A DNA stretch of 64,000 nt from an uncultured Pseudomonadota bacterium (GTDB lineage Bacteria > Myxococcota_A > UBA796 > SXON01), in assembly GCA_903875225.1 (NCBI GenBank), contig CAIQVJ010000019.1, positions 166,217 through 230,216 of the forward strand, given 5' to 3'. Under the pieces are notes generated by a model, which had not been told where the DNA came from, did not search any database, and saw only the letters and a program-made list of their open reading frames with translations. The number at the start of each line of letters is the position of its first letter. Within the stretch, counting starts at the first letter, position 1. Of the stretch, positions 3,256 through 23,914 are shown piece by piece. A program made the translations under genes and the position numbers.

Positions 3256-4092
3256 ATGGACCTTGGTACGACCCGGACGATGGATCTACGCGGGGTGTCC
3301 GTGCCCACGATGCTCTACGGGACCGCGTGGAAGGAGGGGGAGACCCAGCGGCTCACGAGCGAGGCGCTGAACGCGGGCTTTCTCGGGATCGACACCGCGA
3401 ACCAGCGCAAGCACTACTGCGAGGCGGAGGTGGGGGCGGCGGTGCAGGGGTCCGGAGAGCGCCCGTTCCTGCAGACCAAGTTCACCTACAGGAGGGGCCA
3501 GGATGAGCGCCTGCCGTACGACCCCGCAGCGCCGCTCGCCGAGCAGGTTCGGCAGTCCTTTGCCAGCTCATGCAGCCATCTGGGCGTGCAGGTGGTCGAC
3601 TCGTACCTGCTCCACGGGCCGGAGCGCGACCACGGGTTGACGGGCGGCGACTGGGAGGTGTGGCGCACCATGGAGGCCCTCTGCGACGAGGGCTGTGTGC
3701 GCCTGATCGGGGTGAGCAACGTGCATCTCGATCAACTGCAGGCGCTCGTCGAGGGGGCGCGGGTCCGGCCCGCGTTCGTCCAGAACCGGTGCTACGCGAA
3801 CACTGGCTTCGATGGGGAGATCCGAGCGTTGTGCGCAATCCATGGGATCGTGTACCAGGGCTTCTCGCTGCTCACCGCCAACCGCGCGCTCTGGGGCCAC
3901 AGGGCGCTCCACCCCATCGCCCGCCGCCTCGGCTGCACCCCAGCCCAGGTGATCCTCCGGCATGCCCTCCACCTCGGGATCCTCCCGCTCACCGGGACGA
4001 GCGATCCCGCGCACATGCGCGCCGACCTGGGGTACACGAGCATCTCGTTGACCCCGGAGGATCAGCAGAGCGTCGAGGGGTTGGCCCGGTGA
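3256..4092 (+). CDS. Aldo/keto reductase family oxidoreductase
   Basis: AKR-like order of catalytic residues: GIDTA (Asp), HYCE (Tyr), LQTKF (Lys), LLHGP (His). The C-terminal IPLTGTSDPAHM segment is typical of the family. The start could instead be the ATG at 3280. Confidence 0.88.
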   Translation: MDLGTTRTMDLRGVSVPTMLYGTAWKEGETQRLTSEALNAGFLGIDTANQRKHYCEAEVGAAVQGSGERPFLQTKFTYRRGQDERLPYDPAAPLAEQVRQSFASSCSHLGVQVVDSYLLHGPERDHGLTGGDWEVWRTMEALCDEGCVRLIGVSNVHLDQLQALVEGARVRPAFVQNRCYANTGFDGEIRALCAIHGIVYQGFSLLTANRALWGHRALHPIARRLGCTPAQVILRHALHLGILPLTGTSDPAHMRADLGYTSISLTPEDQQSVEGLAR

Positions 4093-4143: not shown

Positions 4144-7100
4144 TCAGTAGACCGTGAGCGCCCCCGCCGTCGCCGATTGGTACCCATCCGTGGTGCCGAG
4201 CAGGGCGCAGGTGTCGCCGCCCAGATCCGCGTATACCCAGGAGAGCCCGCCGTCGGTCGTGAACCGGTAGGCGTAGTCGTAGGACCCGGGCGTGGACGGC
4301 GCGGTGAGCGTGCCCGCGTATTCGTCGTTGGCGTGGTCGCCCGGGTAGTAGGCGTCCTTGTCGGAGTTGTAGCTGGCCGCCGACCATACCCATCGTGGGT
4401 CCACCATCGGGAGCGTCGCATCGGGCCCGTAGCCCACCTCGGCCTCGATCGGCGTACCGCGACCGACAGCGTCGGTGATCCCGGCCATGTAGACCCAGCC
4501 GTAGACCGTGCCGGGGGAGCCCGCGGTGAGCGACATCGTGCACGGATACTGCACATGGGCGTAGTCCACCGGCTCGCCGTACACGTCCACGCTGGTGGAG
4601 CCCGTGGCGCCGTTCGCCTCGCCGTCGTTGGGGGTGACCGTGCATGTCCACGTCTCGGCCGCGGTCGTGGCGACGCCCGGGACGGTGTCGTGGAGGAAAG
4701 CGCTGGTGGTCGCGCTGGTGTACGCCACGCCGTCGTCGGTCCAGGTCGCGCTGTAGCTGATGGCGTCGCCGTCGGCGTCGGTGCCTGGGACGTCGATCCC
4801 ACACACGAGGTCGTCGAGGCCCTCGATGGGGCCCTCGGGTATGGCCACGACGGGCGCAGCCGGCGCAGAGTTGACCACCGTGACCGGGCTGGAGGTGACT
4901 GCGGTCCCGGGGCCGTCGGCGTCGCTCGGGGTGACCGTGACCCGCACGACATCGTGCTTCGCGAACCACGTCCCGGCGAGCGTGGACGTCGTGGGCGCGA
5001 CCCCGAGGCCGTTGACGGTCCAGGCGTAGGCCAGCGTGATGCCGTCACCATCGGCGTCGGAGGCGGAGGTCGCGACCGTGAGCGTGCTGTCGGTGACCGG
5101 GTTCGGCGGCGAGAGGTCGACAAACGATACAACCGGGGATGTGTTGGCCACGGTTACCGAGGCGGTGCGGGACGGGCTCGCGTCCGCACCGTCGCTCGAC
5201 GTCGCAGTGCAGGTGACGACATCACCGCCGACGACCGCGCTGTCGAGCACGTTCCGGGAACCGGCGGCGAGGCCGTTGACGGTCCAGGCGTAGGAGGGGG
5301 AGTCGGGGTCGGCGTCGGCGTCGGCGTAGCCGACCGTGGAGCAGGTGAGCGTGTCGCCGGCATGCGCAGGGCTCGGGCCGATGCTGGCCCCCGTGAGCGT
5401 CGGCGCCGTGTTCCTCACGGTCACGGAGGTCGTGTCGGTGGCAGATGAGCTGCCGTCCGAGATGTTCACGGTCACGGTGACAGTGTCGCCGCGAGAGAAG
5501 TACACTGCGCCGTCCAGGGTGTCGCCCGTCTCGGGCACGGGAGCGCCGTCGACGGTCCACGCCCAGGTCGTGTAGAGCGCGCCACCGTCGGGGTCGAAGC
5601 CCGTGGCGGTGGCGCTGAGCAGGTCGTTGGTCCGGGGCGAGGAGGGGGTCAGCGAGAGCGAGGTCACCTCCGGGCCGGAGTTGCCGATGACGTTGGTGTC
5701 CGATCCGGCGAGGCCAGTGGCCGTGCCGTCGAACGGCGTGACCGTGCAGGTGACCGCGTCGCCTCCGACGAACATGCCGCCGAGCGTGCGCCCGGTGCCG
5801 GCGAAGGTGCCGTCCACCGTCCAGGAGACCGTGGATGCGTCGGTGTCACCGTCCGCGTCGGCGAAGCTCCAGCCGCACGAGAGCGCGTCGGTCGCCGTCG
5901 CCGGGTCGGGGGTGATGGAAACCGCGCTGACCGATGGGGCGCTGTTGAGCACGGTGACGGGACCGGATGCGAGCGCCGCTCCGGTGCCCCACGCATCGCT
6001 GGGCGTGACGGAGACCCGGACGACGTCGGACTTCGAGAACCACGTGCCGGAGAGCGTGGAGGTCGTGGGGGAGACCGCGAGGCCGTTCACGGTCCATGCG
6101 TAGGCCAGCGTGACGCTGTCGCCATCGAGGTCGGAGGTGGAGGCGGAGGCGGTCAGCGTGCTGTCGGTGGTCGGGCTGGACGGGGAGAGGGAAACAGATG
6201 ACACAACGGGGGGTGTGTTGCCGATGGTGACGGAGTCGGTGCGGGACGGGCTGGAGTCCGTGCCATCGCTGGAGGTCGCGGTGCACACCACCACGTCTCC
6301 GGCGGTGAGCGCTGTCGTGAGCGTGTCCCGGGACCCGGCGGAGGCGCCGTTGACCGTCCACGCGTAGGTGGTCGCCTCGGTGTCTCCGTCTGCGTCGGCG
6401 TAGCCGACGGTGGCGCAGGTCAGCGGATCGCCGACGAATGCCGGGTCAGGGCGGATGCTGGCGGCGGCCAGGGTCGGCGCTGTGTTTCGCACGGTCAGGG
6501 AGGTCGCGTCGGTGGCAGACGAGAGGCCGTCGGAGAGGGTGACGGTCACGCCGACGGTGTCCCCGCGCGAGAAGAACACGGCGCCATCGAGCGTGTCGCT
6601 GGTCTCGGCCACAGATGCGCCGTTGACCGTCCAGGCCCAGGACGTGTAGAGCGTGCCGCCATCGGGGTCGAACCCGGTGACGGTGGCGGTGACTGCATCG
6701 TCGGTCTGTGGGTCGGACGGGGTCAGCGACAGGGAGGTCACCACCGGGCCGGAGTTGCCGATGACGTTGGTGTCCGACCCGGCGGAGCCCGTCGTGATCC
6801 CGTCGGAGGGCGTGACCGTGCAGACGACGACGTCCCCGAAGACGAAAGCGCCGACGAGCGTCGATCCGGTGCCGGCGAGTGCCCCGTCCACCGTCCAGGA
6901 GACCGTGGACACATCGGTGTCCCCGTCGGCGTCGGAGTAGCTCCAGCCGCAGGTGAGCAGGTCGGACTCCGAGGCGGGGTCGGGCGTGATGGACACGCCG
7001 GTCACCGCCGGCGTCGTGTTGACCACCGTGGTCGAGGCCGTACCCGGCGCGCCGTCCGCGAAACCGTCGCTTGCCGTCACCTCGACTGACCACACGTCTC

Positions 7101-18471: not shown

Positions 18472-19371
18472 ATGAGCCGTCTTTCCCTCTCCCTCTCCGC
18501 CCTCGTCGGGCTGGCCCTCCTGGCCCCCGGGTGCGCCGGTAGCTACAAGCAGACCCACGACACGACCGACGGCTCCAACCTCGACTCCGGGGACGCCGAC
18601 ACCGATGCCGACACCGATGCCGACACCGATGCCGACTCGGACACCGACACCGATACGGACACCGATTCGGACACCGACACCGACACGGACACCGACACCG
18701 ACACCGACACGGGTCCGGCGCTCTGCTCCAGTTCGTGGGAGCCGCTGCAGATCAACGGCTGGACACGCAACTACACGATGACGCTCCAGGGCACGGAAGG
18801 CACGGGCGTCCAGGAGGTGTGGGGCACCACCTACACGTCGGACGGCACCCTGGCCTACAACCTCTACGACGAGGTGGACAGCACGAGCGTCGGTTGGGCG
18901 GGCAACACCTCGATCGCCTGCGACCTCGACGGCGGCACCGGCCTGTACATGGTCGAGTGGAACATGGCCGCGAGCTACGGCGGCACGAGCATGGGCTCCA
19001 TGCTCTCGACGCCCGACTCGCCCCGTCGGATCCTGCCGCCCGACTCCGAGATCCCCGGCGCCGGCACCTGGGCCTACAGCTACACGTCGAGCGCCAACAT
19101 GAGCGGGATCCCGATCACGATGACCGCGAGCGGCGCCTACACCGAGGTGGGCATCGAGCCCTGGACCGCCCCCGACGGCTCGGTCTACGATGCGTACCAC
19201 CTCTCGAACGCGTACAGCGAGGACTTCGGCGGGTACTACCAGCTCGGCGGCGTGATCGACCAGTACTACGTGAAGGGCCTCGGCCTCGTGAAGGAGGTCA
19301 ACACGCAGACCGATGGCACGGTGTTCATGACGCGTGACATCACCACCTGGTCGGGCCTGACCCCGTCCTAG
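18472..19371 (+). CDS. Lipoprotein with long (Asp-Thr/Ala/Ser)n linker, unknown function
   Basis: An internal ATG gives MSRLSLSLSALVGLALLAPGC, followed by roughly 40 residues of D-[TAS] dipeptide repeat (DADTDADTDADTDADSDTDTDTDTDSDTDTDTDTDTDT) and a 210-aa beta domain. Confidence 0.75.
   Translation: MSRLSLSLSALVGLALLAPGCAGSYKQTHDTTDGSNLDSGDADTDADTDADTDADSDTDTDTDTDSDTDTDTDTDTDTDTGPALCSSSWEPLQINGWTRNYTMTLQGTEGTGVQEVWGTTYTSDGTLAYNLYDEVDSTSVGWAGNTSIACDLDGGTGLYMVEWNMAASYGGTSMGSMLSTPDSPRRILPPDSEIPGAGTWAYSYTSSANMSGIPITMTASGAYTEVGIEPWTAPDGSVYDAYHLSNAYSEDFGGYYQLGGVIDQYYVKGLGLVKEVNTQTDGTVFMTRDITTWSGLTPS
18592..18711. repeat. Imperfect 6/12-bp microsatellite (GACACC/GATGCC...) encoding the D-[TAS] dipeptide linker
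   Basis: Read directly: gacgccgacaccgatgccgacaccgatgccgacaccgatgccgactcggacaccgacaccgatacggacaccgattcggacaccgacaccgacacggacaccgacaccgacaccgacacg. Confidence 0.9.
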
Positions 19372-19393: not shown

Positions 19394-20530
19394 TCACAGG
19401 TAGCGGTCCGGGTCTGCGAGGATCCGGGCCAGCAGCTCAGGCGGGACGATGCCGGCGCGCAGGTTCACCATCGCGAGCGGCTCGCCAAGCGCAGCGGCAA
19501 GGCCGGCGAGCGCGCCCCCGGACAGCGTGCGTTCGTCGCTCTCGACCTTGGAGAGCAGGCTGTGCGAGAGCCCCAGGCGGGCCGCGAGGTCGCTCTGCGT
19601 CCAGCCCCGGGAGGCGCGCGCCCGACGCAGCCAGCTACCGAACGAGGCGGGTACCCCGCCGGTCGACTGCGTCGCGTGCTCCGGGAGGGTGGCAGGCGCG
19701 CCAGCTTCTGCAGGCCGCTCCCAGTGCAGGCTGGCGAAGGCCGAGTGGTTGTGGATGGACTCCATGTTCTCCACCTCGACGTCCATCGCCGTCACCCCCG
19801 CGGGGTGCTCCTGCAGGGCCCGGACACTGTCCCGGAGCAGGTCCTCCACGAACAGCGGGTGGTCGTACGCGCGCTCGGTCACGAATTTCTCGTCCTCGCG
19901 CTTGAGCAGGCTGTACAGCGGGCACGATGCGACGCCCTCGATCAGCTCGACGACATCTTCAATCCAGAGCATCCTCGCCGCGCGCGCCCGGACCCGCACG
20001 TAGCCGCGCTGGTTGTGCGCCCCGCGGTCGCTCACGGCCTTGGAGCAGGGGCACACCGTCGTGACCGGCACCTCCACGCGCAGCTCGAAGCAGAAGCTCT
20101 CTCCGTCCCGCTCCGCGTGGAAGCCGCACTGGTAGCTGGAGAGCGAGGGGGCTCGGCTCACGGGTGCTGCGCGATGCAGGAAGTACGTGAAGCTCGCGTC
20201 GAGCTGCGCACGGTCGGCCCCGAGGCGCTGCTGCATGCGGGCGAGCAGGTCCGGCAGGTTCTTCAGGGAGAGCTCGGACCGGATGTCGTTGAGCACCTCG
20301 ACGAACCGGCTCATGTGCGTGCCCTTCACGTCTGCGGGGAGGGCGACGCTCGCGTCGATGCGGGCGACGGTGTGCTGCATCCCGTCTGCCCGGTCCCACA
20401 CCGTGATCGGCCAGGACAGGCCCTTGATCCCGACCCGGTCGATGGCGATGCCGCGCTCGTCAGCGTGGGATGCGTGGTCGGGCAGGTGCTGGCGTAGCGT
20501 ACTGCTGCGGGGGTCGGGAGGGGTCGTCAT
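19394..20530 (-). CDS. folE2: GTP cyclohydrolase IB (FolE2/MptA family) fused to a C-terminal XRE-type helix-turn-helix domain
   Basis: FolE2 blocks: IDRVGIKGL, GTHMSRFVE, VTTVCPCSK, GAHNQRG, ENMESIHNHSAFA. The last ~80 aa are WLRRARASRGWTQSDLAARLGLSHSLLSKVESDERTLS, which follows the HTH_3/XRE pattern. It is a single uninterrupted ORF. Confidence 0.85.
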   Translation of the reverse strand: MTTPPDPRSSTLRQHLPDHASHADERGIAIDRVGIKGLSWPITVWDRADGMQHTVARIDASVALPADVKGTHMSRFVEVLNDIRSELSLKNLPDLLARMQQRLGADRAQLDASFTYFLHRAAPVSRAPSLSSYQCGFHAERDGESFCFELRVEVPVTTVCPCSKAVSDRGAHNQRGYVRVRARAARMLWIEDVVELIEGVASCPLYSLLKREDEKFVTERAYDHPLFVEDLLRDSVRALQEHPAGVTAMDVEVENMESIHNHSAFASLHWERPAEAGAPATLPEHATQSTGGVPASFGSWLRRARASRGWTQSDLAARLGLSHSLLSKVESDERTLSGGALAGLAAALGEPLAMVNLRAGIVPPELLARILADPDRYL

Positions 20531-20591
20531 GCGGCCGCCTACCGGTTATCGCCAGAATTGTCAACTCTCGCGGAGCAGCATCTTGCCAACG

Positions 20592-21056
20592 ATGGAAAAC
20601 CCCACGCCTGCCGGCACGGTCACCTGTACGCGGAGGCTGGAGTGGGACGCGATGCACCGGATCCCCCGACACGAGTCGAAGTGTGCGGCGTTTCACGGCC
20701 ATCGGTACGCCGTGGAGCTCACGTGCGTCGCGCCGCTCGACGCCCTGGGCCGGGTGATTGACTTCGGCGTGGTCAAGCAGCTTGTCGGTGGCTGGATCGA
20801 CGCCTCCTGGGACCACACCGCCATCCTGCAGCGCGACGATCCAGACCCTGCGATCAAGGCGATCGCAGCATCGAACGAGGCCCATGGGCGGCCGGTCTAC
20901 TGGATGGACGTGCCGCCCACGGCCGAGAACATGGCAGCGGAGCTCGCCGGCGTGGCGACCACCCTGCTCGCACCGACGGGGGTCGTGCTGCAGCGCCTGC
21001 GGCTCTGGGAGACGCCGAACGGCAGTGCGGAGTGGGTTCGCGCGGGCTCGGCATGA
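20592..21056 (+). CDS. queD: 6-carboxytetrahydropterin synthase / 6-pyruvoyl-tetrahydropterin synthase family
   Basis: 154 aa. ESKCAAFHGHRYAVEL (Cys plus HGH zinc motif), DFG..K....W.D...DH, and a C-terminal LWETPN..AEW. It is divergent from folE2 across a 61-bp spacer. Confidence 0.85.
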   Translation: MENPTPAGTVTCTRRLEWDAMHRIPRHESKCAAFHGHRYAVELTCVAPLDALGRVIDFGVVKQLVGGWIDASWDHTAILQRDDPDPAIKAIAASNEAHGRPVYWMDVPPTAENMAAELAGVATTLLAPTGVVLQRLRLWETPNGSAEWVRAGSA

Positions 21057-22087
21057 GCTGGTCGGGCAAGGCCCTCGGCGGGCTGTTCGGTGCGCTCGTC
21101 GGTGGGCCGGTCGGCGCCGGGGTCGGGGCGGCGGTGGGCCACTACCTGGGCGATGCGCGCCCCGAGGCCCGGGAGTTGGAGCTGGTGAAGCTCCGCTGGG
21201 TCCACCATGGCTTCCAGTCGTCCGGCCCCGGCGTGGCGCTCACACCGGTGTGGCGCGCGCGAGGGCTGGTGGACGTGGACGTGACCGTACGCGTCGACGC
21301 TGCGGGCCGGTGCGAGACCGCCGTGGTCACGCCCGATCACCCGGTGGAGGAGATCGAGTCTCCAGGCTGCTTCGTGCCCTACGGCTGGTTCCCCGCCGGG
21401 GAGAGCGCTCCCGTGACCGTGACCCTCCGCGCCGCCCGGGGCGGCCAGGATCGCGAGGTGTTCGAGATCCCGATGCCGCGCGGCGCGCGACGGCTGGGAA
21501 ACAGCGGCCCGGGGCGGGTGGTCATGGCGCTGGTCGCCTGCGCGCGCGCCGGCGGGCGGGGGCTGACCCCCGACGACAAGGACTACCTCCGGACGCGGTT
21601 CCTGGAGGGCCAGCCGCTGGACGCGGACGGGAGGGCCTGGCTGGCCGCCTGGCTCCTGGAGCTGGAGACGGCGGCGCTCGGGCGACTGGACGCGCAGCGC
21701 GTGGCGCGACGCCTGTCGGTGCATGTGGACGACGCGGGCGTGGACCGTGTGATGACGTGGCTGATGCACGGCACGCGGGCCAGTTGGCCCACCGAGGCTG
21801 CGGAGCGCTTCATCGACGAGCTGGCTGGCGGGCTGGGGGCGGGTGCCCGCCTGGACGCCCTCTGGGCACGCGTGGCGGCGGAGCCGGACCCTGTCGCCGT
21901 CGCGCGGGCCGGACGGGTGCTGGGGGTCGCGCCGGGCACGCCGACGGATGAGGCGCGCAAGGCCTACCGCGCGCTGGTGATGCGGTGGCACCCGGACAGG
22001 GCGGCGTCGGCCGCCGAGGCCGAGGAGTTCACCCGGCGCACGGCCGCGATCAATGCAGCCTGGGCAGTGATTTCGGGGGGGCGCTGA
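21053..22087 (+). CDS. DjlA-like membrane co-chaperone (Gly-rich N-terminal TM, central domains, C-terminal J domain)
   Basis: The ATG overlaps the queD stop (ATGA at 21053-21056). The N-terminus is GKALGGLFGALVGGPVGAGVGAAVG. The C-terminus LGV.PGTPTDEARKAYRALVMRWHPDR carries the HPD motif. Confidence 0.8.
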   Translation: MSWSGKALGGLFGALVGGPVGAGVGAAVGHYLGDARPEARELELVKLRWVHHGFQSSGPGVALTPVWRARGLVDVDVTVRVDAAGRCETAVVTPDHPVEEIESPGCFVPYGWFPAGESAPVTVTLRAARGGQDREVFEIPMPRGARRLGNSGPGRVVMALVACARAGGRGLTPDDKDYLRTRFLEGQPLDADGRAWLAAWLLELETAALGRLDAQRVARRLSVHVDDAGVDRVMTWLMHGTRASWPTEAAERFIDELAGGLGAGARLDALWARVAAEPDPVAVARAGRVLGVAPGTPTDEARKAYRALVMRWHPDRAASAAEAEEFTRRTAAINAAWAVISGGR

Positions 22088-22142: not shown

Positions 22143-22787
22143 GTGTTCACCGGCCTAGTTGATCATTGCGGCAGGATCGTCTCCACCGGCCCCAGCGGCT
22201 CCGGGCGGGCGCTGCGCATCGAGAGCCGGTTCACGGATTTCGTGCTCGGGGAGAGCATCGCGTGCGACGGCGTCTGTCTGACGGTCGAGAGCTGGACGGC
22301 GGGCGCGTTCACGGTCACCGCGGGGGACGAGACGCTGCGCGTCACGACCCTGGGGGCAAAGCACGCGGGTGACACCGTGCATCTGGAGCGTGCGCTGCGG
22401 GTCGGCGACCGTCTGGGCGGGCACCTCGTGCAGGGGCATGTGGACGGCGTCGGCGAGGTCATGGCGATCATCCCGGGCGCCACGTGGACCCGTGTGGACA
22501 TCGCCGTCCCCGCGGAGCTGGCGAGGTACATCGCGACGAAGGGCAGCGTGACGGTGGACGGCGTGAGCCTCACAGTCAACCAGGTGCACGATGCCGGCGC
22601 GCTTCACACGTTTTCCGTGGGCCTCGTCCCCCACACGCTCGCCGTCACCCGTTTCGGCGGGCTCTCGGTGGGCACGCGGGTGAACATCGAGACCGACCTG
22701 CTCGCGCGCTACGCCGAGCGGCTGGCGGCCTTCCCGCCGAACGAGCCCTCCGTCACGGTCGATCTGCTGCACAGAGCCGGCTTTTGA
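22143..22787 (+). CDS. ribE: Riboflavin synthase (alpha chain)
   Basis: (M/V)FTGLV at the N-terminus, [36 protein letters not shown], with the internal duplication typical of the family. GTG start. Confidence 0.95.
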
Positions 22788-22804
22788 ATCCCGCTTCCTC
22801 AAGG

Positions 22805-23914
22805 ATGTCCATGTCGTTCGAAGTCATGCACCGCGATCCCGAGACCCGCGTGAAGATCGCCCTCGACGACATCCGCGCCGGTCGGATGGTGATCCTGATC
22901 GACGACGAGGACCGCGAGAACGAAGGCGATCTCACGCTCGCCAGCGATCGCGTGACCCCGGAGGCCATCAATTTCATGGCCACGCACGGCCGTGGCCTGA
23001 TCTGCGTCACCTTGACGGACGAGCGCGTCGGCGCCCTGAACCTGCCGATGATGGCGTCGAACAACCGCTCCCCGTTCTCCACGGCCTTCACGGTCTCCGT
23101 CGAGGCCCGCGATGGCGTCACCACCGGGATCTCCGCGGCCGATCGGTCCCGGACCGTGCAGGTGCTCATCGACCCGGCCACCGGCCCCAACGATCTGGTC
23201 ACCCCGGGGCACATGTTCCCGTTGAAGGCCCGTAATGGTGGCGTGCTCGTGCGAACCGGCCAGACCGAGGGTTCCGTCGATCTCGCGCGCCTCGCTGGGC
23301 TCACCCCCTCTGGCGTCATCTGCGAGATCATGAACGACGACGGCACCATGGCGCGCCTTCCGGACCTCGAGAAGTTCGGTATGAAGCACGGTATACACAT
23401 CGTGAGCGTCGCTGATCTCGTGCGCTGGCGGCTCACGTACGAGCATCTCGTCACGCCGGTGCTCGACCTGCCGATCGCCACCGAGGAGTTCGGGTCCTTC
23501 CAGGCCCGGGTGTACCAGGCCATGGGCGGTGGGCTGCACCTCGCGTTGTGGGCGGGGGAGCTCACCGGTCCCGTGCTCACGCGGGTCCAGGCCTCCAGCG
23601 GGCCCGTGGACGTGCTGCGGGCCCTGGCCAGCGGCTCACAGGGGCCGCTGCGCGCAGCGATGTCGGCGATCGCCCGCGAAGGCAAGGGTGTGCTGCTCTA
23701 CCTGCACATCGACGGCAGTGGGCCCGATGCGCTCCTCGCCCGGATGCGCGGCGAGGCGTCCAAGCACGATCCGCTCCGTGAGCTTGGCCTGGGCGCGCAG
23801 ATCCTCGCCCACCTCGGCGTGCGGGAGATCCGCCTGCTCACGAACAACCCCCGCAAGATCATCGGGCTGGACGCCTTCGGCCTGCACATCCTCGAGCACA
23901 TGCCGCTGGGCTAG
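22805..23914 (+). CDS. ribB: 3,4-dihydroxy-2-butanone-4-phosphate synthase fused to a degenerate GTP cyclohydrolase II-like domain (RibBX-type)
   Basis: The N-terminal half is canonical RibB ([37 protein letters not shown]). The C-terminal half aligns to RibA, but the zinc cysteines are replaced: RVHSEC becomes RVQASS and LRCDCG becomes LASGSQ. Confidence 0.9.

Follow-up and report, generated by a model that had tools for sequence, protein, structure and literature searches.

The stretch analysed here (the window) comprises 64 kb of contig CAIQVJ010000019.1 from an uncultured Pseudomonadota bacterium, and encodes on its minus strand (19394..20530) a protein of 378 amino acids (aa), plus stop codon, in which a GTP cyclohydrolase IB (FolE2) catalytic domain is joined to a C-terminal XRE-type helix-turn-helix (HTH) domain, as identified from the open reading frame (ORF) and its Pfam and NCBIfam matches. 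The ORF was read in the 64-kb window as one uninterrupted frame with no internal stop. The deduced product consists of the FolE2 domain (aa 16-271; 19718..20485; full-length profile match), a flexible linker of ~25 aa (aa 272-296; 19643..19717; AlphaFold2 and family alignment), a five-helix XRE/HTH_3 DNA-binding domain (aa 297-358; 19457..19642; hidden Markov model (HMM) matches, AlphaFold2 and Foldseek) and family-specific C-terminal tail helices (aa 359-378; 19397..19456; alignment and AlphaFold2), all on the minus strand. Across a divergent intergenic region of 61 bp (20531..20591, between the two start codons), the plus strand carries queD (154 aa; 20592..21056), which encodes a PTPS-I type 6-carboxytetrahydropterin synthase, followed with a 25-nt overlap by a djlA-like gene (351 aa; 21032..22087) specifying a DjlA_TM and a DnaJ J-domain.

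In a preliminary description made from the letters of this DNA alone, the ORF had been read as a FolE2 domain followed by an XRE domain, and HMM searches now placed both domains above curated thresholds. PF02649 (GCHY-1/FolE2) matched aa 16-266 over its entire profile (1-260/260; E 1.3e-84) with a score of 284 bits against a cut-off of 25, while the NCBIfam FolE2 equivalog NF010200 scored 266.6 bits against a cut-off of 215. For the C-terminal domain, PF01381 (HTH_3) matched aa 301-353 with 45.5 bits (gathering cut-off 23) and PF13560 (HTH_31) scored 41.9 (cut-off 27). The motifs CPCSK, HNQRG and ESIHNH, as well as the HTH string quoted in that description, were all present in the protein.

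The best solved relatives of the catalytic domain are Nitrosomonas NE1163 (2r5r; E 1e-75), a Burkholderia enzyme (8g6c; E 6e-61) and a Neisseria enzyme (3d2o). In Burkholderia pseudomallei FolE2, which is a homotetramer, the metal ligands are Cys154 and His166 of one subunit and Glu208 of the adjacent barrel (PMC11573665). Mapping to this enzyme identified C160 (20051-20053), H172 (20015-20017) and E214 (19889-19891), all on the minus strand, as the respective counterparts, and these three residues are invariant in the 39 aligned members of the fusion family. The motifs GTHMSRF, CPCSK, HNQR, KREDEKxVTE, FVEDL and ESIHNH are likewise invariant across this alignment, in which more than 60 FolE2 positions do not vary. 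As the ligands and motifs are invariant and the FolE2 equivalog cut-off is passed, the catalytic domain of the window protein looks fully competent.

Similar constraint was observed in the C-terminal part of the protein, where R305, Q312 (at the start of helix 2) and E330 of the HTH are invariant among the 39 aligned members. The tail consensus LRAGVVPxxLLARIQADPEGFLRW was present in all 39, with G360 invariant, and the tail may play a role in dimerisation. The linker varies in both length and sequence across the alignment.

Protein structure prediction using AlphaFold2, run on the family alignment for the monomer only, indicated that both domains fold and that the linker between them is disordered. 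The mean predicted local distance difference test (pLDDT) score was 85.7 for the full protein and ~90 for the FolE2 domain, dropped below 50 for linker residues 277-292, and reached 92-97 for aa 297-378, a region modelled as five XRE helices plus two extra helices (364-372 and 374-377) that represent the family-specific tail. When modelled alone, the C-terminal domain obtained a pLDDT of 93.4. Foldseek assigned the HTH to XRE repressors with a probability of 1.00, the nearest solved folds being C.BclI, C.AhdI, ClgR, SinR-DNA, DdrO, CapH, ImmR and P22 c2-operator. Superposition on C.BclI gave template modelling scores of 0.64/0.73 and a root mean square deviation of 2.1 A, and the deviation from C.AhdI was 1.3 A.

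To place the fusion among its relatives, a collection of 5.8 billion proteins was searched and the best 120 matches, extending down to ~50% identity, were compared. A FolE2 domain combined with HTH_3 or HTH_31 in a protein of 360-420 aa was found in 119 of these 120 homologues, the sole exception being a truncated entry of 313 aa; the fusion is therefore conserved in relatives and not a sequencing artefact. A protein identical to that of the window (P0001) occurs on seven public contigs from several sources. All named sources of homologues are metagenome-assembled genomes, assigned to Myxococcales, Myxococcota, Deltaproteobacteria, Pseudomonadota and, in one case, Kiritimatiellia. The named relatives are mostly labelled 'GTP cyclohydrolase I FolE2' and two are labelled 'hypothetical protein'; no label mentions the HTH, which represents a systematic annotation gap.

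Further searches were directed at genome contigs and at the C-terminal part of the protein. A profile of the full alignment retrieved at least three fusion loci among the matches listed, with plain FolE2 predominant, and a pattern search based on a C-terminal alignment of 10 sequences gave four fusion loci plus generic XRE matches; no search patterns could be derived from a C-terminal alignment of 24 sequences, owing to its divergence. An HTH-plus-tail profile, searched against 1.84 billion representatives, matched mostly multi-HTH repeat proteins, the single-stretch matches being usable. Apparent cases of stand-alone HTH-plus-tail proteins were rejected as fragments or, once, as a miscalled gene (P0273 lay outside this comparison), and no sign of a split gene pair was found.

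The neighbouring genes connect the fusion to 7-deazaguanine synthesis. In the preQ0 pathway, FolE or FolE2 converts GTP to dihydroneopterin triphosphate (H2NTP), after which QueD, QueE and QueC act in turn (PMC5699537). PTPS proteins are distinguished by the signatures CxxxHGH (PTPS-I/QueD), ExxHGH (PTPS-III) and CxxxxxHGH (PTPS-II) (PMC5041015), and the PTPS protein of the window (PF01242, E 1e-23) carries KC-AAF-HGH, corresponding to CxxxHGH; a PTPS-III with a folate role was consequently rejected, as the motif is not ExxHGH. Although its score of 64.2 bits against the TIGR03367 equivalog falls under the cut-off of 89.25, owing to an insertion in the protein, its assignment as QueD is based on the motif together with 71% identity to the PTPS of the queC-queE cluster at locus L086. 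Its identity to the PTPS proteins of L082, L087 and L086 spans 71-80%.

Comparison of 19 distinct fusion-bearing loci revealed preQ0/7-deazaguanine genes near the fusion in 14, which backs the link to queuosine and 7-deazaguanine synthesis made in the preliminary description. Six members of the window clade (59-100% identity) display the arrangement of a divergent queD followed by an overlapping djlA-like gene, a PTPS gene is divergently placed beside the fusion at L001, and queD-djlA is located 2.3 kb downstream of the fusion at L087. A queC-queE-fusion operon was identified at L086, L089, L090, L002 and L108, and at three of these loci, L086, L090 and L108, genuine Dpd DNA-modification genes surround or adjoin it (PADLOC scores: DpdA 1e-152, DpdB 1e-132 to 1e-137, DpdC 1e-38 to 1e-40). 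In the 64-kb window itself, tblastn searches with DpdA, DpdB (L090 and L086), QueC, QueE, the 283-aa DpdC of L090 and two other neighbours as queries gave no queC, queE, dpdA, dpdB or dpdC match, and no dpd or restriction genes were detected. The window likewise contains no preQ1 riboswitch, no match to any Rfam family and no tRNA, and an RNA element as an alternative regulator was rejected on the basis of the negative Rfam result.

To characterise the promoters of the family, the sequences preceding the fusion gene, or preceding its operon where it is not the first gene, were oriented and aligned. These regions share a putative promoter geometry of TTGACx, 17 nt and TAnnnn, and the full arrangement with an ATG 5 or 6 nt further on (TTGACx-17-TAnnnn-5/6-ATG) recurs in L104, L082, L105, L084, L087, L083 and L085. 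As the ATG follows the -10-like box by 5-6 nt, the mRNAs of stand-alone fusion genes may be leaderless. Stand-alone fusion genes with this geometry, including that of the window, lack a Shine-Dalgarno sequence, while a leader with GGAG was observed in the operon-embedded cases L086, L089, L090 and L002, as well as in L001 and the stand-alone L003.

An unbiased scan of 16 promoter regions of 90 nt covered the complete set of 1024 palindromic trinucleotide dyads, spacers ranging from 0 to 15 nt. The top-ranked dyad, CAA-N7-TTG, was found in nine of the 16 regions, compared with a background of 0.019 per region (binomial P = 3e-12; ~3e-9 after Bonferroni correction). Its right arm coincides with the -35 box, and a TTGNC site is expected to have CAA at this distance in 1.6-2.4% of cases by chance (9254 background sites). 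The full sites represent 17-bp palindromes, namely GTCAAC-CGATA-GTTGAC (L003), GTCAAC-TCGAT-GTTGAC (L002), GACAAC-GATGA-GTTGAC (L084), GGCAAC-TCGCT-GTTGCT (L085), GGCAAG-TATAG-GTTGAC (L082), GGCAAG-CTTGG-GTTGAC (L105), GACAAG-TCTTC-CTTGTC (L090), GACAAG-CGCTA-CTTGCC (L089), GGCAAC-GGCAG-ATTGAC (L106) and GACAAG-TATGC-CTTGTC (L108), with the consensus G[GAT]CAA[CG]-N5-[GCA]TTG[ATC]C. L106 (included in the nine of 16) and L108 (the seventeenth region) were added after the motif had been defined, and both carry the dyad, bringing the total to 10 of 17.

Between related loci the arms of the dyad are kept while the spacer changes, as would be expected of a protein-binding site, and the arm sequence loosely tracks the sequence of HTH helices 2-3, in a small sample. 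As a control, CAA-N7-TTG was found upstream of two of 76 plain folE2 genes, for which larger regions (180 nt) were searched, and neither of these sites is palindromic beyond the core. The possibility that the left arm represents the -35 box of a divergent promoter was rejected: in L082 and the window the arm lies 3-15 nt from the queD start, no -10 sequence occurs at the right distance, and L084 and L085 have co-directional upstream genes. Taken together, the HTH probably binds the promoter dyad as a sequence-specific DNA-binding domain.

The 61-bp intergenic region of the window was compared with this family pattern. Its length holds if queD starts at ATG 20592, a start needed to include the conserved N-terminal strand of the protein, whereas gene callers begin the gene further in, at ATG 20652. 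The region shares the elements TTGGCAA, AGTTGACAA and ATAACCGGTAG with that of L104, the nearest relative (74% aa identity). By comparison with the family, a putative, apparently leaderless promoter of the fusion gene can be placed at 20536..20564 on the minus strand, composed of a -35 box TTGACA (20564->20559), a 17-nt spacer, a -10-like TAGGCG (20541->20536) and 5 nt to the ATG; a scan of the region with a strict sigma-70 consensus gave no match, and no convincing queD promoter was recognised in the 61 bp.

The preliminary description had expected an operator in this region, and sequences equal to the arms of the family dyad are indeed present as the candidate half-sites TTGTCAA (20558-20564) and TTGCCAA (20583-20589) on the plus strand (20558..20589 in total). 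Read on the gene strand, gTTGgCAAg lies beside the queD start and gTTGaCAAt at the -35 box, giving gCAAg-N16-gTTGAC, i.e. CAA-N18-TTG, with centres 21 bp (two helical turns) apart, compared with N7 and 10 bp (one turn) in other family members. L104 keeps both half-site elements and differs from the window in the sequence between them. Candidate half-sites are present, at N18 rather than N7 and with no inverted repeat, and point weakly to an operator, which is plausible in this region. It is conceivable, though speculative, that two linker-tethered HTH domains could occupy such half-sites on the same face of the DNA.

A further line of evidence is provided by relatives with degenerate catalytic domains. 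In P0239 (317 aa; L106, 3937-4890), 26 of 30 family-invariant FolE2 residues are lost, including through in-frame deletions of the CPCSK...HNQR and LLKREDEKxVTERAY segments, and in P0278 (385 aa; 12 contigs) 12 of the 30 are lost, among them the metal-ligand Cys. P0279, the sister of P0239 and P0278, is intact. All three proteins retain the HTH and tail, at 77-87% identity, and R305, Q312, E330 and G360 are all kept. The dyad is present at the promoter of the P0239 gene, which is encoded divergently from a queD-queC operon. Conservation of the HTH and the scaffold after the loss of catalysis indicates that the HTH has a function of its own, and P0239 and P0278 look like an enzyme-to-transcription-factor transition caught at intermediate stages. 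The enriched promoter dyad and the retention of the HTH in these degenerate forms back, at the level of sequence comparison, the regulatory DNA-binding role suggested in the preliminary description.

The family-level evidence is coherent and, on balance, makes it probable that the fusion is a bifunctional protein, in which an active FolE2 enzyme is combined with a local transcription regulator of its own gene and of neighbouring 7-deazaguanine genes. In this scheme, the FolE2 domain would make dihydroneopterin triphosphate, the first intermediate towards preQ0 and 7-deazaguanines, which the adjacent QueD would consume, while the XRE-type HTH, tethered by the flexible linker to the FolE2 core, would bind 434-like dyads over the -35 box of its own promoter or that of the queC-queE-fusion operon. 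The consequence would be autoregulation, together with control of queD, queC, queE and dpd genes where these are divergent or in an operon with the fusion; in the window, the divergent queD-djlA-like operon would be the target. Repression and activation both fit, as the dyad is centred near -41 and overlaps the -35 box: binding could repress by occlusion, or activate in a class-II-type manner. Activation of the latter type is exemplified by the controller (C) proteins of restriction-modification (R-M) systems and by lambda cI at PRM.

Several observations weigh against this bifunctional reading. The 61 bp of the window contain no compact dyad and no inverted repeat, the half-sites being N18 apart here and N19 apart in L104, and the dyad is absent from seven of the 17 family promoters. 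Furthermore, the right arm of the dyad coincides with the generic -35 consensus, which leaves the left arm as the sole informative one; definition of the motif was post hoc, though it was later confirmed on two new loci, and related loci (L082/L105 and L089/L090/L108) inflate the counts. The flanks of five of the 19 loci (L083, L084, L085, L088 and L003) contain no que genes, and the degenerate forms belong to one small subclade of two clusters, with the locus read for P0239 alone. The overall interpretation in the preliminary description is thus partly supported: the architecture, folds, conservation and pathway link stand, no compact operator was found in the gene's own 61 bp, and the suggested substrate- or product-sensing repressor is speculative as to the sensing, with activation fitting as well as repression.

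An extension of the bifunctional reading is also possible, although we regard it as distinctly tentative. In solved FolE2 structures the core is a homotetramer, with active sites at subunit interfaces (PMC11573665), which makes a coupling of DNA binding to GTP or pterin occupancy attractive. The fusion would then be a trigger enzyme, in which occupancy by GTP, H2NTP or a downstream 7-deazaguanine such as preQ0 rearranges the tetramer, repositions its four HTH domains and switches the preQ0 genes. In Dpd islands, such a protein might act as a C-protein-like controller that times DNA modification relative to restriction, and relatives that have lost catalysis would be purely metabolite-sensing transcription factors of enzyme origin.

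Four rival explanations were weighed, all of which are less well supported than a bifunctional enzyme-regulator. The FolE2 domain of the window protein might serve mainly as a ligand-sensing or oligomerisation scaffold of a transcription factor, with bulk activity supplied by another gene. As seen in the degenerate relatives, the scaffold can outlast catalysis, and the evidence is confined to the 64-kb window, leaving room for a second folE or folE2 in the genome. This explanation is nonetheless unlikely, as the window protein keeps every family-invariant catalytic and metal residue, passes the FolE2 equivalog cut-off and is encoded next to queD, the consumer of the FolE2 product.

We similarly consider it rather improbable that the HTH is a protein-interaction or oligomerisation module that does not bind DNA, comparable to the HTH of RodZ with MreB, and that it recruits QueD, the DjlA-like protein or another partner. 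Some XRE-fold domains do bind proteins, the window clade has kept the queD-djlA-like pair beside the fusion, and the window has no compact operator. However, the canonical HTH_3 features R305, Q312 and E330 are invariant, the nearest structures are all DNA-binding repressors or controllers, the promoter dyad is enriched specifically in the fusion family, and the djlA partner is missing from most fusion loci.

Little probability is assigned to the idea that the HTH merely tethers the enzyme to DNA, whether at particular sites or non-specifically, and so brings the production of 7-deazaguanine precursors near the Dpd machinery, with transcription left uncontrolled. The FolE2 reaction, which uses a soluble nucleotide, precedes preQ0 by four steps, so that no benefit of such placement is obvious; moreover, the window clade and most loci are without dpd genes, the dyad sits specifically at the -35 box of cognate promoters, and the degenerate non-enzyme form with a readable locus keeps its HTH beside queD-queC. 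These points outweigh the presence of three family members inside genuine dpdA/B/C clusters and the DNA-binding, ParB/DndB-like nature of DpdB itself. Finally, an artefactual joining of two genes by a missed stop, frameshift or assembly error, the circumstance in which the preliminary description saw its reading fail, is not borne out by the data and can practically be dismissed, since the one product that might suggest it, a 99-aa HTH protein that was all the gene caller reported at L108, is a miscall of an intact single frame, the identical protein recurs on seven independent contigs, the 119 homologues from many samples share the single-ORF architecture, and no stand-alone HTH-plus-tail homologue was found.

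The bifunctional fusion was compared with known systems. With GTP cyclohydrolase IB (2r5r, 3d2o and 8g6c) it shares a full-length catalytic domain, the Cys/His/Glu ligands, the motifs and the role of first enzyme in the folate and preQ0 pathways. The solved or characterised FolE2 proteins that were found are single-domain chains of 257-303 aa with no DNA-binding domain, to which the fusion adds a linker, an XRE HTH and a tail. Known regulation of folE2 involves Zur and zinc. No description of a FolE2-HTH fusion was found in a full-text literature search covering 8 million papers, in line with the impression in the preliminary description that the architecture is uncharacterised.

As in BirA, NadR and PutA, a biosynthetic enzyme and a DNA-binding domain are present in one polypeptide (here as judged from sequence and model), and the predicted targets of the DNA-binding domain of the fusion are the promoters of its own pathway genes. 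These three proteins are known as 'trigger enzymes', the defining property of which is ligand-dependent DNA binding. The fusion differs from them in its enzyme fold (T-fold) and pathway, and in having an XRE-type HTH at the C-terminus.

Among solved structures, the R-M controller proteins C.BclI and C.AhdI rank with the closest matches to the fusion HTH. C-protein systems carry a palindromic operator placed at, or extending over, the -35 box of their own leaderless promoter, and a comparable dyad at or over the -35 box of the own promoter is seen in 10 of 17 family promoters, that of the window not among them. In L086, L090 and L108, the fusion gene furthermore stands at the head of, or inside, the modification module of a Dpd defence island, which is R-M-like. 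C proteins are, however, stand-alone proteins of ~80 aa, whereas the fusion HTH is joined to a 270-aa enzyme, and the window is without dpd or R-M genes; C-boxes, moreover, contain GACT/AGTC, from which the family dyad differs in sequence. The operators of phage 434 repressor and Cro, ACAA-N6-TTGT, resemble the dyad in having CAA/TTG half-sites about one helical turn apart. Their cognate proteins belong to the same HTH superfamily, but the fusion family has a spacing of N7 between CAA and TTG, other flanking bases and an unrelated protein context.

The control described for queuosine genes consists, to our knowledge, mainly of preQ1 riboswitches, and for Dpd DNA-modification islands we know of no described regulator. 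With a conserved enzyme-HTH fusion, the first committed flux from GTP would be open to control through a protein, and reading the protein in this way supplies a specific, testable operator. With intact, partly degenerate and fully degenerate forms coexisting, the family may also illustrate how an enzyme can evolve into a transcription factor in nature.

Additional observations were made on the genes surrounding the fusion. The queD-djlA pair is kept in every window-clade member and in L087, with 48-49% identity in L082 and L087, the two divergent loci measured, and we have no explanation for the pairing of a membrane J-protein with a queuosine enzyme. Directly downstream of this pair in the window (22143-23914), and also in the closest clade members, lie ribE and ribBA (DHBP synthase/GTP cyclohydrolase II), as a result of which two different GTP cyclohydrolase genes occur within 4 kb. 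At L083 (1983-4942; P0057 lineage, 42 contigs), the fusion gene is located directly downstream of two lipoxygenase-family genes rather than que genes.

The Dpd islands of L108 (283-6776), L090 (241-6664) and L086 (1-7163) display the order queC-queE-folE2HTH-dpdC-dpdB-dpdA-dpdB, with two DpdB-like genes in each of L090 and L108. At L086 the fusion is additionally followed closely by a second QueC-like paralogue, a divergent one, which is ~29% identical to its own QueC and ~36% identical to the QueC proteins of L089 and L090.

The 5' end of queD is unusual at two loci. In L082 (~4906-4990), the conserved N-terminal strand of QueD, TCTRRLEWDAMHRIP, has no in-frame upstream ATG, GTG or TTG, while in L105 (~3360-3450) the sole upstream start for this strand is a GTG inside the fusion promoter, which is absent from L082. 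Gene callers begin both genes at an internal Met and thereby cut the conserved strand; translation might begin at a non-canonical start codon, or the transcript might be unusual. On the other side of the fusion gene in the window, a hexanucleotide tandem repeat (GACACC, 19.8 copies; 18592-18710) encodes an Asp-Thr/Asp-Ala/Asp-Ser run in an ORF for a predicted secreted or lipoprotein-like protein, which is convergent with the fusion gene, the two stop codons being 22 bp apart.

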